IMG/VR virus record: IMGVR_UViG_2639762884_000001 | Source: a virus | Taxonomy: Duplodnaviria; Heunggongvirae; Uroviricota; Caudoviricetes | Direction: 5' to 3' (one strand) | Length of the DNA: 64,000 bases | Shown here: in pieces, positions 16,466 through 20,831 of the stretch | Position numbering within the stretch: position 1 is the first letter of the stretch | Layout: every line of letters starts with the position of its first letter | Notes under the pieces: generated by a model | The model's input: only the letters and a program-made list of their open reading frames with translations | Told to the model about the DNA's origin: nothing | Database searches by the model: none | Position numbers and translations under genes: made by a program

Positions 16466-16540
16466 GATGGTGTAGCTCAGCGGTAGAGCAGTTGGCTGTT
16501 AACCAACTGGTCGGTGGTTCGAATCCACCCACCATCGCCA
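16466..16540 (+). tRNA. tRNA-Asn (anticodon GTT)
   Basis: Clean cloverleaf: acceptor GATGGTG/CACCATC, D-arm GCTC/GAGC, anticodon loop CTGTTAA, T-loop TTCGAAT, CCA end. Confidence 0.85.
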
Positions 16541-16545
16541 ATTTA

Positions 16546-16632
16546 GGAGAGTTAGTCCGTAGAGGTAGCGGGGTAGACTGTAAATCTACTGTCATTGCGA
16601 CTCGGGTGGTTCGACTCCATCACTCCCCACCA
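16546..16632 (+). tRNA. tRNA-Tyr (anticodon GTA), long variable arm
   Basis: Anticodon stem-loop GTAGA-CTGTAAA-TCTAC; T-arm GGTGG-TTCGACT-CCATC; CCA end; 5' acceptor/D-arm boundary folds imperfectly by hand. Confidence 0.6.
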
Positions 16633-16636
16633 AATT

Positions 16637-16712
16637 GCCGGTTTAGCTCAGTTGGTAGAGCGCCTGCCTTGTAAGCAGGATGTCAGCGGTTCGAGTCCGT
16701 TAACCGGCACCA
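16637..16712 (+). tRNA. tRNA-Thr (anticodon TGT)
   Basis: Acceptor GCCGGTT/AACCGGC, D-arm GCTC...GAGC, anticodon loop CTTGTAA, T-loop TTCGAGT, CCA end. Confidence 0.85.
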
Positions 16713-16936
16713 ATACAACGATAAGATCATTACGGTTAATCGTCGTTCATGTGCACAATGACTGGTCGAAAGGTAGTGATCTTACCGTTGTGGTGGATTC
16801 GCAGACTGATGCGATAGCTTTCTTGGATGTTAGGGAAATGCGGCCGCAAATCTTCCCTTTCGCGAGCGGTGATCGTCCGTAGTCCTAATTGGCTGCACCG
16901 TATGCCGGAGATTCAGTACCGGCTATCACAACGGCC

Positions 16937-17023
16937 GGAGAGTAGGGAGCATGGTGCTCAAGCGGTCTTGAAAACCGTCCCATTGCGCAAGCGATGATGG
17001 TTCGATTCCATTACTCTCCGCCA
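16937..17023 (+). tRNA. tRNA-Ser (anticodon TGA), long variable arm
   Basis: Acceptor GGAGAGT/ACTCTCC, anticodon stem-loop GCGGT-CTTGAAA-ACCGT, T-arm GATGG-TTCGATT-CCATT, discriminator G, CCA. Confidence 0.65.
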
Positions 17024-17025
17024 GA

Positions 17026-17103
17026 CACAGCGTTGAGCGGTTTGGCCTTTTAATCAACTCGATTAAGACTCCGCTAACATAAACCAGACCGCTCAACGCT
17101 GTG
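17026..17103. repeat. long-armed inverted-repeat element B (candidate small structured RNA)
   Basis: Perfect 16-nt arms cacagcgttgagcggt / accgctcaacgctgtg around a 46-nt loop, directly after tRNA-Ser. Confidence 0.45.
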
Positions 17104-18429: not shown

Positions 18430-18635
18430 GTTATCTATATCGTTAGTTAATTTTGAACATAAATGATACTTAGTCCACCGCTAAATTTCATCAAATTTGA
18501 TAATTTTCTTGACGATCATGTCTCAAAATTATTTATACTTGGCATATTTGAGATATATAATAATAGGTAATAACACACCTATCACATTTAAGCATCAACA
18601 AGATAAATTACGGACCCAGACCAGAAAGGAAACTA

Positions 18636-18884
18636 ATGAGAAATATACTTATCTACGGACGAGATAACTGCTCATACTGCAAACGTGCGGTCGAGCTGGC
18701 GAAGAAACTAAAGGGACATGGCTACGGTGATTATGAGTACATCGACATCACCACTGCCGGTATCGATAAGGAAAAACTTAGCGAAATTGTTGGTAAACCG
18801 GTAGAGACTATCCCCCAGGTGCTGATCGATGGCCAGCCGATTGGCGGATACACAGAACTGGCTGCATACGTCAGCACCCTCTGA
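18636..18884 (+). CDS. glutaredoxin (NrdH/NrdC-like redoxin)
   Basis: CSYC active-site motif near N-terminus (YGRDNCSYCKRA), 82 aa; AAAGGA RBS. Confidence 0.8.
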   Translation: MRNILIYGRDNCSYCKRAVELAKKLKGHGYGDYEYIDITTAGIDKEKLSEIVGKPVETIPQVLIDGQPIGGYTELAAYVSTL

Positions 18885-18889
18885 TTTTA

Positions 18890-18913
18890 ACGGCTCACAG
18901 GAGCCGTTTTTTA
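18890..18913 (+). terminator. rho-independent terminator
   Basis: cggctc acag gagccg followed by tttttt. Confidence 0.65.
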
Positions 18914-19095
18914 TTCCCACCAAACTCACACCTGTTTCCATTAAAATTCAAAAAACAACGCCTGAATGATTCCATACCTACTATGTATGGAATCATTGCT
19001 GAAAATGAGTTACTTTTACTCTTGATCCTATAAGAATCTATGCCTAATATACTGTTTACTTATACAGTGCATCGGCGTAACTCGGTGATTGTCAT

Positions 19096-20199
19096 ATGAA
19101 AAATAGCTTTGACAGAGCACGCGCTGCGGAGAACACCTCAAAAGAGGCGATAGAGTATCTCGAAAGAGCATCTCAAATGCAGGCCGTTATGATCTCCCAG
19201 GTCAGCAATGACATGAGATTCTCGGACGCATTCATGTTATTCACTCGCTTATCTCTGCTGATAACCAGACGTCGGCCAGAGATCGCTGTTCATTGTATTT
19301 TGATACATGTTTTGCCGCACATTGCCGATGTAAAAGTAAGTGACATTAATAGGTTCATGGTGAACCAACTGGTCAACCCACTAATACTGGATGGCAAAAT
19401 TGTTATGGGCCGCCGCGTTTTCTCTCTGATGAAGCAGTTCCTTAGCTGGTGCGCCTTCCAGGGGATGATAGACGTGTCACCGTTAAACGATATGTCACTT
19501 AACAAAGTTGCCGGTGGCGCAAAGCCCACACCTCGCGAGCGGAAGCTGACCGACGCAGAGGTATGGGTGTTCTGGAATATATGGGACTACTTCAATGTGT
19601 GTGCTGGTACAAAATGGGCGGCCAGGCTGTGTCTTGTATCAGCAAGACGACCTGACGAAGTACTGCGGGCTAAAAAAAGTGAGTTCAATCTTAAGCGTGG
19701 GGTTTGGAATCAAGGCAAGAGGAACAAATCTGCCCGTGAGCATTCTCTGCCTTTAAGCTCATTAATGCGCACTTGTATTGAAGAGTTGTTCGAATATGGT
19801 AAAGACAGCCAGTGGCTCGTGCCTTCGAATAAAAAAATCGGGAAAGACCTTCCTATGTCTAAAGTGGCAATAGCCCAGGCATTACGTCGTATTCTGGAAC
19901 GACCAGAACTGATGGAGCTTGAGCCATTTACACCCCGAGATTTGCGCCGTACTGCGCGTAGTTACTTCCCAGCATTAGGCATAAGCCAGGAGGTATCACG
20001 TAAAATCATGAACCACAGTCTTGAGGGGATAGATCGGGTCTACGACCGGCACGATTATATGGACGAGATGCGAGACGCCTTAGAAAGTTTCTCGACGTAC
20101 ATCGCATCAATCGTAGAGCAACCGGATTTAGACGAAATTGACCACAAATTTAAGGGAGATCGTCTATCAACAGAGCTTATTCGTGTAAATTTTTCATAG
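19096..20199 (+). CDS. int: tyrosine site-specific recombinase (phage integrase family)
   Basis: C-terminal catalytic signature ...RDLRRTARSYF...HSLEGIDRVYDRHDY; core-binding-like middle domain; N-terminal arm-binding region short or atypical. Confidence 0.75.
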   Translation: MKNSFDRARAAENTSKEAIEYLERASQMQAVMISQVSNDMRFSDAFMLFTRLSLLITRRRPEIAVHCILIHVLPHIADVKVSDINRFMVNQLVNPLILDGKIVMGRRVFSLMKQFLSWCAFQGMIDVSPLNDMSLNKVAGGAKPTPRERKLTDAEVWVFWNIWDYFNVCAGTKWAARLCLVSARRPDEVLRAKKSEFNLKRGVWNQGKRNKSAREHSLPLSSLMRTCIEELFEYGKDSQWLVPSNKKIGKDLPMSKVAIAQALRRILERPELMELEPFTPRDLRRTARSYFPALGISQEVSRKIMNHSLEGIDRVYDRHDYMDEMRDALESFSTYIASIVEQPDLDEIDHKFKGDRLSTELIRVNFS

Positions 20200-20580
20200 A
20201 GACTTTATGGCCTCAACAACCTTTTGTGATGCGCCTTTCTCTTTACCGAATCGCTCGTTATATGCAGCAAGAACCTGTTTTTCGTCCTCGTTAAGAGGAG
20301 CAGTGCCTTCTTTGTATAAAAATGCTGCGAGTTCGGGTTGGCGTTCTTCCAGCACCATCATCATAAGACGACTTGGCTCAATACCCAGTGCCAGCGCCAG
20401 CGGACGAACCTTATCGATAGGCAAAGGAATTTTGCCGCTTTTAATTAAAGAAAGGTTGTTGGCGTTTTTATACCCAATTGTTTTGGCTATCTGGGCCTGG
20501 CTCATAGGTGAGGATTCAATCAACCCTGCGATAAAAGCAGCGTAGCGACTTTCTATAAATTCAATCTTGTTATCAGACAT
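20194..20580 (-). CDS. HTH transcriptional regulator (XRE/Cro-CI-like)
   Basis: HTH segment MSQAQIAKTIGYKNANNLSLIKSG; 128 aa; convergent with recombinase; AAAGG RBS. Confidence 0.6.
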   Translation of the reverse strand: MSDNKIEFIESRYAAFIAGLIESSPMSQAQIAKTIGYKNANNLSLIKSGKIPLPIDKVRPLALALGIEPSRLMMMVLEERQPELAAFLYKEGTAPLNEDEKQVLAAYNERFGKEKGASQKVVEAIKSL

Positions 20581-20831
20581 GGTTACAACCTTTGCGCGTT
20601 CAATTCTCTCTGGTAAGTGCTTACCGATATTACATCAAAGGTTAGGGTTGTAAAGCTATTATCATTTTTTTCGATAGGCACTTAAAAGACCGGTTAAAGG
20701 CCATTGCACGGAGAAAAATTAGCCCAAAACAGGTAAGAAAATCAACTTGCATATGATATGTATGTATTCAGTATTGATACAAATTTTAGTAGTATTCCTT
20801 ACCATAGTATAAGTTAGAATGGATTGATTGA

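Follow-up and report, generated by a model that had tools for sequence, protein, structure and literature searches.

Does a tyrosine recombinase encoded close to a cluster of transfer RNA (tRNA) genes serve to integrate a phage into the chromosome, or does it serve the plasmid state of the element? The question is raised by positions 16466-20831 of a 64,000-nucleotide stretch of a Caudoviricetes genome (IMG/VR record IMGVR_UViG_2639762884_000001; hereafter the window), where the recombinase gene, int, faces a convergent gene for a helix-turn-helix (HTH) protein. An earlier reading of these letters (the original prediction) had considered an integrase of an element that may also integrate, an islet of foreign DNA, and a Cre/Xer-like recombinase of the plasmid state. 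The window is part of an Escherichia coli phage-plasmid of the SSU5 supercommunity, of the pSLy3/Cyrano type. Our analysis, which is computational throughout, leads us to conclude that int and a lox-like site in front of it are probably a Cre/loxP-like module of the plasmid state, with multimer resolution as its most probable task, and are neither an integrase system nor an islet.

A lox-like site precedes the recombinase gene

The gene int (19096-20199, + strand) encodes a tyrosine recombinase of 367 amino acids and starts 2.07 kb past the tRNA-Ser gene, in agreement with the ~2 kb given originally. Its start codon at 19096 is backed by the conserved N-terminus of the family. The core recombination site lies 99 bp upstream of this start (18965-18997) and reads AATGATTCCATAC-CTACTAT-GTATGGAATCATT, i.e., a perfect 13-bp inverted repeat (13/13 arm positions complementary) around an asymmetric spacer of 7 bp. 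The chance expectation for a perfect 13-7-13 repeat in 64 kb is ~1e-3. The original prediction had missed this repeat, as well as the LexA box at 19052-19067 described below. It had nevertheless proposed a search for lox-like inverted repeats, and the site that this search returned is universal in the family and co-varies with the recombinase.

In the relatives from E. coli and Klebsiella, the arms are invariant, the spacer is CTACTAT, ATAGTAG, or TTGGTAG, and the surrounding DNA is ~74% identical. We then scanned one genome per species, which gave 62 loci encoding a homologue of Int (43-86% identity). All 62 have an inverted repeat with arms of 12-18 bp and a 7-bp centre, placed 34-150 bp upstream of int. 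The arms are perfect or near-perfect in 59 of them, and the other three, all from Chimaeribacter, match at 11/13 positions. The arm sequence follows the recombinase: it is ATGATTCCATAC with the Int proteins of clade A (at least 57% identity) and GTGACTCCAGAC with those of clade B (43-53%). The changes are mirrored in both arms, with the three imperfect loci in between. The HTH gene, cobT, dnaE, and any phage gene are missing from about 50 clade-B loci, which nonetheless keep int and the site. The genes around them encode GGDEF proteins, a chemoreceptor (MCP), H-NS, and a TonB receptor. The plasmids concerned measure 122-456 kb and include Pantoea pA (253 kb), pC3_1 (456 kb), pPANA1, and a 122-kb Erwinia plasmid. 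The conservation pattern, the universality, the co-variation, and the linkage to int alone together identify the 13-7-13 repeat as the predicted cognate target of Int.

The clade-A site is also present on 101 IMG/VR contigs, with at least 10 types of spacer. The flanks to its left fall into 81 unrelated groups, whereas the right flank, with the int promoter, is constant. The only conserved block in the 81 non-redundant left flanks is an A/T-rich motif (consensus YYAGAWTTC; TTAAAATTC at 18941-18949 in the window) located on the far side of the left arm as seen from int, 16-24 bp beyond it. The A at -25 is found in 70 of the 81 flanks, and the T at -21 in 68. This motif is kept in both recombinase clades without co-varying with the arms, and may serve as a site for a host factor or an accessory factor. 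Relative to int, the asymmetric spacer is found in either orientation, even between identical flanks (CTACTAT and ATAGTAG with the same flanks; TTAATAG and CTATTAA in clade B), and its orientation is therefore neutral. We did not accept these flips as proof of recombinase action: template switching across a hairpin could also invert the loop.

Int is a reduced enzyme of the lambda/P4 lineage

Int consists of a core-binding and a catalytic domain, the latter matching the Pfam Phage_integrase family (PF00589) above its cut-off (E 2.9e-10, residues 172-320). The catalytic residues are R185, K211, R281-x-x-R284, H307, and Y316. We aligned 18 members of the family, spanning 43-100% identity, with P4-like outgroups: R185, K211, R284, and Y316 do not vary, and H307 hardly does. 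The RHRY-type signature originally reported is thus only partly right, because the histidine of the box II HxxR motif is replaced by an arginine (R281, giving RxxR) in 18 of the 18 family members, whereas the outgroups have the histidine. Judged from these residues, Int would be catalytically active.

A database search places ~110 sequence clusters in the family, with proteins of 340-395 amino acids that are 43-100% identical; no member has the arm-DNA-binding domain PF13356. Beyond the family, identity falls abruptly to at most 34%, with P4-like integrases of at least 400 amino acids that do have PF13356. The alignment of Int to the NCBIfam model PRK09692 starts only at model position 137 of 413, and the first ~100 columns of the P4-like outgroups are absent from the family, which bears out the short or atypical N-terminus noted at the outset. 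An AlphaFold2 model of Int (mean predicted local distance difference test, pLDDT, 82.6) has only helices before residue 120. Its best Foldseek match in the PDB is lambda Int 75-356 on COC' DNA (E 3e-7, template modelling score 0.72), followed by Tn1549 Int, XerA/XerH, and IntI (IntI at E ~7e-4). The match to Cre is marginal (E 0.07-0.2), and a phmmer search of the PDB with the Int sequence gives nothing at E<=1. The absence of PF13356 and the fold match to lambda Int 75-356 show that Int is a lambda/P4-lineage enzyme cut down to its core-binding and catalytic domains.

The module resides on plasmids

Among 5,426 complete E. coli genomes, 252 carry int and the site, in 255 places, all of them on plasmids and none on a chromosome. 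The four scanned loci with a replicon label are also on plasmids. The 62 genomic loci all have a complete two-armed site, and none has a hybrid attL/attR junction. The idea that Int is an integrase and that the element may integrate thus finds no support, given the missing arm-binding domain, the lack of tRNA-derived repeats, and the 255 of 255 E. coli copies on plasmids. The universal, co-varying 13-7-13 site speaks instead for the other proposal, a Cre/Xer-like recombinase for the plasmid state. We also considered the DNA beside the site of phage PhiR41_1 as a possible chromosomal flank and rejected it as a sign of integration, since it consists of a plasmid-type fimbrial operon and insertion sequence (IS) remnants of the IS3 type.

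The element encodes its own RecA and an exonuclease, and its relatives are annotated with RecA and a 5'-3' exonuclease. The annotation of the whole of PhiR41_1 and of 50 kb of a near-identical plasmid lists no second site-specific recombinase. In the LF82 lysogen of Cyrano, the int homologue is expressed at 49.5, against 7-20 for its neighbours, i.e., ~5 times the local background (PMC9928086, S1 Table). For Vika, Nigri, Panto, and eight more recombinases, the true target had been predicted from a lox-like palindrome beside the gene (PMC4957104, PMC10250229). A simple recombinase and a lox-like site on a low-copy, recombination-proficient replicon reproduce the layout of P1 Cre/loxP, which makes multimer resolution the most economical role by analogy. 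Each 13-bp arm would bind one Int monomer, and strand exchange would take place within the 7-bp asymmetric spacer. Homologous recombination would produce plasmid multimers, which Int acting at the core site would return to monomers, so ensuring stable segregation of the prophage-plasmid as with P1 Cre/loxP. [quoted passage not shown]

Two plasmid loci deserve a separate mention. In the E. coli WEM25 plasmid NZ_CP061531.1, the int match begins only at query base 97, 59 nt beyond the core site, and this record has two places that match; a rearrangement or an insertion may have occurred between core and int. In plasmid unnamed30 of strain HCP5S3_I4 (NZ_JBWDPU010000001.1), the segment with int and the core site is 100% identical to positions 18960-20199 of the window. 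Copies of IS100 disrupt dnaE, the uracil-DNA glycosylase gene, and tail-tip genes of this replicon (9622-15099 and 42634-49320), which is probably a defective prophage maintained as a plasmid.

A LexA box overlaps the predicted int promoter

The promoter of int (19022-19050, + strand) can be read from the sequence as TTGATC (19022-19027) and TAATAT (19045-19050) with a spacer of 17 bp. Both hexamers are invariant between the E. coli and the Klebsiella relatives. Because its score of 8/12 falls below the threshold of the sigma-70 scan, which does not list it, we treat it as a predicted promoter. A LexA (SOS) box, CTGTTTACTTATACAG (19052-19067), starts 2 bp downstream of the predicted -10 hexamer. 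The window contains one exact CTGT-N8-ACAG, against 0.8 expected. The box lies 53-55 nt after the core site in 99 of 115 clade-A loci, with CTGT and ACAG kept and 12 variants of the inner octamer, and it is absent from the clade-B loci. The complete genome of PhiR41_1 has three exact boxes of this kind: upstream of umuD, on the int promoter, and at 33077. We judged the former two convincing; the inner sequence of the third is less AT-rich.

As the LexA box overlaps the int promoter, expression of int in the phage-plasmid lineage is predicted to be low under normal conditions and to be raised by DNA damage. Cyrano is induced 39-fold by ciprofloxacin, and SSU5-like elements are inducible by mitomycin C.

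The convergent gene encodes a putative prophage repressor

The HTH gene (20194-20580, - strand) encodes a protein of 128 amino acids that is homologous to CYRAN_45 of Cyrano, a "putative repressor". It overlaps int by 6 bp, with no terminator between the two. It is convergent with int in all SSU5-like relatives and confined to the phage-plasmid lineage. The convergent arrangement given in the original prediction therefore holds, while the assignment to the XRE type is less firm: the match to HTH_19 is weak (E 7.8e-4, 19.7 bits against a Pfam cut-off of 30.2), the other Pfam matches, to HTH_37 and HTH_3, are also weak, and there is a match to phrog_8, "transcriptional regulator" (1.3e-11). Pfam finds no S24 self-cleavage (peptidase) domain in the protein, and the PDB has no sequence match to it at E<=1. 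In the LF82 lysogen, CYRAN_45 reaches 95.8 normalised reads, against 7-20 for its neighbours (PMC9928086).

The AT-rich region at 20581-20831 (34% GC) separates the HTH gene from the divergent operon of phrog_2627, cobT, cobS, and dnaE. The promoter scan predicts an HTH promoter in it (20627-20654, - strand; TTTACA, 16-bp spacer, TAATAT), whose hexamers fall in invariant blocks. Immediately downstream of its -10 lies a putative operator, the exact palindrome GGTAAGTGCTTACC (GGTAAG-TG-CTTACC, 20612-20625). The half-sites GGTAAG/CTTAC and the promoter hexamers are invariant across E. coli, Klebsiella, Kluyvera, Yersinia, and Buttiauxella, while the rest of the 250 bp diverges. The last base of the operator is T rather than C in Kluyvera, Yersinia, and Buttiauxella, so that the full palindrome is exact only in the E. 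coli/Klebsiella lineage. For the HTH regions of Xenorhabdus and Photorhabdus, the signal for a co-varying operator was too fuzzy for use.

Allowing up to two mismatches gives 7 palindromes of this kind in the window (1.3 expected), a number that none of 100 shuffles attains; the copy at the HTH gene is the best of them. Five of the other copies are further putative operators and are intergenic (1483-1496; 43678-43691, GGTAAGTGCTTATC; 53231-53244; 55445-55458; 60414-60427). They lie upstream of ORFs (open reading frames) on the + strand, share the extended consensus ATAGGTAAGnnCTTACCTAT, and are abutted on their 3' side by a -10-like hexamer (TATAAT, TATTAA, TATTGA, TATCAT, or TAATTT). The one at 43678-43691 has TATTAA on its 3' side and precedes a 771-amino-acid ORF at 43740. 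The HTH protein would be a repressor that recognises GGTAAG-N2-CTTACC both at its own promoter, and so regulates itself, and at some five others, all in front of rightward operons; it looks like a prophage repressor with a dispersed regulon, in accord with the label of CYRAN_45 and with its expression in the lysogen. The invariant putative operator at the HTH promoter and the five similar ones elsewhere lend inferential support to the earlier suggestion of a lysogeny-control module made up of the HTH gene and the AT-rich region. As the protein lacks an S24 domain, SOS induction must reach it indirectly. We found no CI/LexA-like repressor in the annotation of relatives or in Pfam scans of the candidate regulators of PhiR41_1. 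The LexA-controlled promoter of the convergent int gene is one candidate route from the SOS response to the HTH protein.

Single arms are dispersed around the core site

Besides the core site, the window has three exact single copies of the 13-bp arm, for each of which the chance expectation is ~0.002, and a degenerate one. Arm 1 (AATGATTCCATAC followed by ATC; 15250-15265, + strand) overlaps the start codon of a 50-amino-acid ORF (MIPYISL...). Arm 2, with the same sequence (16262-16277, + strand), lies ~200 bp upstream of tRNA-Asn. The arm in dnaE (25013-25028, - strand; 13-mer at 25016, then ATC) covers the codons C-M-E-S-L and points toward the core. The degenerate arm is inside int (19702-19714, - strand; codons V-W-N-Q), with 3 mismatches here and an exact sequence in most other lineages. 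All four are oriented toward the core, two on the + strand to the left of the cargo genes and two on the - strand in int and dnaE.

These positions are conserved. Arm 1 is kept ~1.0 kb to the left of arm 2 in many lineages, and arm 2 has the same position relative to tRNA-Asn in Klebsiella pJN2-26. Many loci of Klebsiella, Kluyvera, and the Yersinia type have the exact arm inside int, +733 to +736 from the core, and the arm in dnaE lies at about +6.05 to +6.34 kb across lineages. The 108-kb genome of PhiR41_1 has no arm outside the conserved positions. In dnaE, the arm codons 85-89 (TGT ATG GAA TCA TT) are invariant at wobble positions among 24 distinct clade-A sequences, while the codons beside them vary synonymously and the two residues before them are hypervariable. 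At this place, the residues of clade-B phage-plasmids are unrelated. This pattern points to selection on the dnaE arm at the nucleotide level, and we rejected a chance or coding coincidence in view of the invariant wobble positions.

We also rejected the single arms as recombination partners: the 7 nt that follow the arm differ between sites within one genome, and the arms are therefore not compatible crossover sites. In the window, ATCTCAT follows the arms at both 15250 and 25016, an identity that is not general across lineages.

Comparison with known systems

The Cre-type systems (Cre/loxP of P1, Dre/rox, Vika/vox, Nigri/nox, Panto/pox) resemble the module in their organisation. They combine a lone two-domain tyrosine recombinase without an arm-binding domain with two inverted repeats of 13 bp that enclose a short asymmetric spacer and lie beside the gene on a plasmid or phage-plasmid. 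They are presumed to resolve multimers of low-copy prophage-plasmids and have varied natural spacers between identical arms. Int differs from Cre in that we detected no sequence relationship (phmmer on the PDB, E<=1) and in its Foldseek E value of ~0.1, against 3e-7 for lambda Int. The module also has a 7-bp spacer instead of 8 bp, the RxxR box II, the LexA box, the flank motif, and the dispersed single arms. It would work like the Cre/loxP family without being a member of the Cre clade. The published mining of Cre-type systems demanded Cre homology and an 8-bp spacer, so that a site with a 7-bp spacer would be missed. We rejected an identity with Panto/pox of Pantoea, Panto being 41% identical to Cre.

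The closest relatives in sequence are the heterobivalent integrases of the P4 type (CP4-57/PRK09692-like), with 26-34% identity over the core-binding and catalytic domains and shared DLRRT and NH...Y motifs. Here, however, there is no PF13356, no duplication of a tRNA 3' end as att site, and no chromosomal copy, and long, perfect core arms take the place of short, weak ones. The integron IntI/attI system likewise has no arm-binding domain, a LexA box on the promoter, a site upstream of the gene, and variable cargo beyond it; IntI is under SOS control. The LexA box on the int promoter, present in 99 of 115 clade-A loci, is in this respect a resemblance only: there are no attC-like elements around the cargo, a perfect double-stranded palindrome is not an attI, and the fold match to IntI is worse than that to lambda Int. 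XerCD with dif or cer uses two paralogues and a 28-bp site of 11-6-11, whereas a single recombinase gene and a 13-7-13 site with identical arms are found here.

The Rci/sfx shufflon has dispersed sites with one conserved arm beside non-conserved sequence (PMC11852207), and its arms, as here, lie on opposite sides of the core in inverted orientation. The 7 nt after the arms differ within one genome in our case, two arms lie inside essential-looking genes, and we found no inversion among the 115 loci. The geometry of the single arms also recalls the Ter/Tus trap around dif. The HTH protein can be compared with the C1 repressor of P1, another phage-plasmid regulator with an apparent operator at its own gene and at several distant promoters. 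The operators of C1 are asymmetric 17-mers, while those described here are palindromic (GGTAAG-N2-CTTACC), and the small XRE-like HTH protein is unrelated to C1.

Backbone genes, cargo genes, and the tRNA cluster

Positions 16000-21200 of the window have a full-length match in plasmid pMTY13926_NA1 (97.4% identity) and partial matches in the phages Cyrano, CMS-2020a, and PhiR41_1 and in more than 1,300 non-mobilizable plasmids. Only 7 of 1336 matching plasmids cover at least 80% of the query. The genes flanking the region encode an ATP-dependent ligase, CobT/CobS-like proteins, and DnaE. The order and orientation of int, the HTH gene, the gene of the 70-amino-acid phrog_2627 protein, cobT, cobS, and dnaE are kept in the relatives, and the synteny of int and the HTH gene with cobT, cobS, and dnaE extends over elements of E. 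coli, Klebsiella, Kluyvera, Yersinia, and Xenorhabdus. Two stretches vary from plasmid to plasmid, between tRNA-Ser and the glutaredoxin gene grxA and between grxA and int. In relatives they hold AbiGi with a 403-amino-acid protein, a Gp49-family protein, PhoH, the highly expressed CYRAN_43, or a fimbrial operon. Hence, the region of 17.0-18.6 kb is a hot spot for cargo. The conserved gene order places int and the HTH gene in the backbone, and the notion that this segment is itself an islet finds no support for these two genes: only ~17.0-18.6 kb and, in relatives, the gap between grxA and the site are variable.

The cargo of the window is an ORF of 406 amino acids (17209-18429, - strand; phrog_18168) with an N-terminal transmembrane helix. 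Its GC content of 31%, against 45% for the window, agrees with its description as a foreign-looking gene between the tRNAs and the recombinase. Its family is fast-diverging (30-68% identity) and occupies the same slot in 141 plasmids, and the allele of the window is rare. We found no Pfam match, PADLOC match, or recognisable domain in it, and rejected it as a defence gene in view of the Pfam and PADLOC results. It is also unrelated to the 403-amino-acid partner of AbiGi that occupies the same slot in pEcFELIX526.1, and we rejected that identification too. It is followed by grxA (18636-18884, + strand), which encodes a GrxA-family glutaredoxin and has its own terminator (18889-18908). The 406-amino-acid ORF contains a perfect 34-bp palindrome (GTCAAAATATGCCTTAT/ATAAGGCATATTTTGAC, 17317-17350), of which a 70%-similar copy lies in its promoter region (18520-18549). 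Among the loci compared, the 26-bp centre of this palindrome recurs only in plasmid unnamed30 of HCP5S3_I4, where the ORF also has 1221 nt; it is absent from the pMTY13926_NA1 allele, which is 95.6% identical.

PhiR41_1 (L007, 26338-30092, and L008, 30100-36107) has annotated genes for UmuD, with its own LexA box, for Mrp, and for methionyl-tRNA synthetase. Its cargo slot to the left of the core site holds the plasmid-type fimbrial operon and IS3 remnants. It also encodes, outside the window (37192-37710), a 172-amino-acid FljA-family "repressor of phase-1 flagellin" (Pfam Flag1_repress, E 1e-68).

The four tRNA genes at 16466-17023, all on the + strand, were recovered by both ARAGORN and Rfam: tRNA-Asn (16466-16540), tRNA-Tyr (16546-16632), tRNA-Thr (16637-16712), and tRNA-Ser (16937-17023). 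No tRNA fragment of at least 14 nt recurs anywhere in the window, which agrees with the failure of the original prediction to find a direct repeat of a tRNA 3' end, and we rejected on this ground the tRNA genes as attachment sites and a tRNA origin of att repeats. The Asn-Tyr-Thr-Ser cluster is backbone or cargo, not an attachment site. Similar clusters occur in P7, D6, and N4-like phages: that of the window shares 92-93% identity with the clusters of P7 and D6, which are unrelated phage-plasmids, and ~79% with those of the lytic N4-like phages, and vB_EcoM-Ro157c2YLVW is listed beside them for the likeness of its cluster. Cyrano lacks tRNA-Tyr. The cluster thus behaves like a module exchanged among phages. 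The spacer between tRNA-Thr and tRNA-Ser is 224 bp long (16713-16936), against 8 bp in Cyrano, and holds a 24-nt imperfect inverted repeat (16710-16733/16773-16796). Two long stem-loops with 20-nt arms (95% complementary; 16081-16202 and 17026-17103; shared CACARCGTTGAG) bracket the cluster, possibly as structures for processing or termination. Within a 776-bp non-coding stretch between small ORFs and the tRNAs, positions 15764-15866 give a sub-threshold Rfam match (17 bits, E 0.027) to the tRNA-like 3' part of the transfer-messenger RNA model.

Alternative explanations

Several observations weigh against a plain plasmid-resolution module. The change from histidine to arginine in box II is non-canonical, and the activity of Int is a deduction from its sequence; active relatives, such as SSV-type integrases and type IB topoisomerases, can have basic residues there. 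The conserved flank motif may hint at accessory factors, and thus at a system less simple than Cre, and the conserved single arms, one of them at the nucleotide level, are unaccounted for by a plain Cre-like model. The host XerCD could resolve multimers at an unrecognised cer-like site, SOS control has no obvious use for a resolvase, and resolving concatemers in lytic growth would possibly be counter-productive. We weighed four other explanations. One is that Int is a true integrase, with the core as its attP and a spacer-matched chromosomal site as its target. Its gene bears the annotation "site-specific integrase", its sequence relatives are P4-like integrases, and plasmid pMT1 of Yersinia pestis is reported to integrate. 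We regard this as very improbable, since none of the 255 E. coli copies is chromosomal, the four replicon-labelled loci are all plasmids, all 62 loci have a complete two-armed site and no hybrid attL/attR, and there is no arm-binding domain, arm-type repeat, or repeated tRNA fragment. The palindrome could alternatively be a mere operator or an RNA hairpin serving int or the neighbouring cargo gene, with the recombinase as a catalytically inert relic that binds DNA. The site is 25 bp upstream of the int -35, the box II change is present, and the single arms at promoters and inside genes would fit pure DNA binding. On the other hand, both arginines, the lysine, and the tyrosine nucleophile are invariant over 43-100% identity, the half-site centres of the 13-7-13 repeat are 20 bp apart as in lox and FRT, and the spacer varies and flips while the arms stay perfect, as would be expected of a crossover region, for which a match with its partner suffices. 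We find this explanation quite improbable as well.

The two remaining explanations take the SOS control of int as their starting point. In an integron-like scheme, SOS-induced Int would insert or exchange DNA at the core and so create the variable region that begins ~30 bp to its left. The layout fits (variable cargo, site, LexA-controlled promoter, and a recombinase gene reading away from the site), as do the 81 unrelated left flanks facing a constant right flank, the end of homology within ~30 bp of the arm, and PhiR41_1, where homology breaks at the arm and the fimbrial operon lies beyond. However, no arm-like or attC-like sites delimit the cargo genes (of arms, only the two in the backbone are present), which have their own promoters and terminators and occur in both orientations, and conserved anchors (tRNAs, grxA, and int) would permit their exchange by homologous recombination. 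Moreover, the left flank retains its conserved motif, so that the cargo junctions are not at the crossover point. We consider such cargo capture improbable. A doubtful but somewhat less remote idea is that the lox-like recombinase was recruited into the lysis-lysogeny circuit of SSU5-like elements, with the LexA-controlled promoter as SOS sensor for a prophage whose repressor is not cleavable, and that the module serves phage-plasmids mainly in induction instead of maintenance. Transcription from the int promoter would run into the HTH gene and lower the repressor by antisense effects or collision, and/or a burst of Int would act on the copies and on the four inward-pointing arms; it might fuse monomers into packageable multimers, or form a roadblock or barrier inside dnaE and int. 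In favour of this idea, conservation of the LexA box is limited to the lineage with both the convergent HTH gene and the dispersed arms. Across the 6-bp overlap of int and the HTH gene there is no terminator, and the first terminator-like hairpin on the + strand (20420-20436) is inside the HTH gene. The HTH protein lacks S24 and no CI/LexA-like repressor was found among the PhiR41_1 candidates tested, yet Cyrano shows its 39-fold induction by ciprofloxacin; PhiR41_1 has exact LexA-type boxes at umuD and int; and the arms seem to be under nucleotide-level selection, as seen in dnaE. Against this stand the wholly inferential nature of the scheme, the parallel rise, rather than opposite change, of int and HTH RNAs in macrophages, and the clade-B modules, which lack all these features and keep int and the site, so that core recombination is the ancestral function. 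If true, it would give a tyrosine recombinase a non-recombinational role (a polar barrier or trap round the site, or control of its own replicase) that has no described counterpart.

Significance

We found no description of Int or of its site in the searchable literature, nor any of how SSU5-like prophages sense DNA damage. The LexA box conserved on a promoter that faces a candidate repressor gene makes the latter question directly testable, and the arms kept at synonymous sites of dnaE are an unexplained signal. The pair of recombinase and site is a candidate orthogonal tool, being compact, unlike Cre in sequence, and endowed with a 7-bp spacer, two arm specificities, and a dozen natural spacers. 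Hundreds of phage-plasmids of E. coli, Klebsiella, Salmonella, and Yersinia, and many megaplasmids of Pantoea, Rahnella, and Erwinia, carry this gene under the label "site-specific integrase". Our results would have it re-read in such elements as part of a lox-like system of the plasmid state that is not integrative, and the neighbouring tRNA genes as something other than attachment sites. The system would be a lox-like module whose scaffold is of the P4/lambda type, under predicted SOS control and accompanied by accessory arms.

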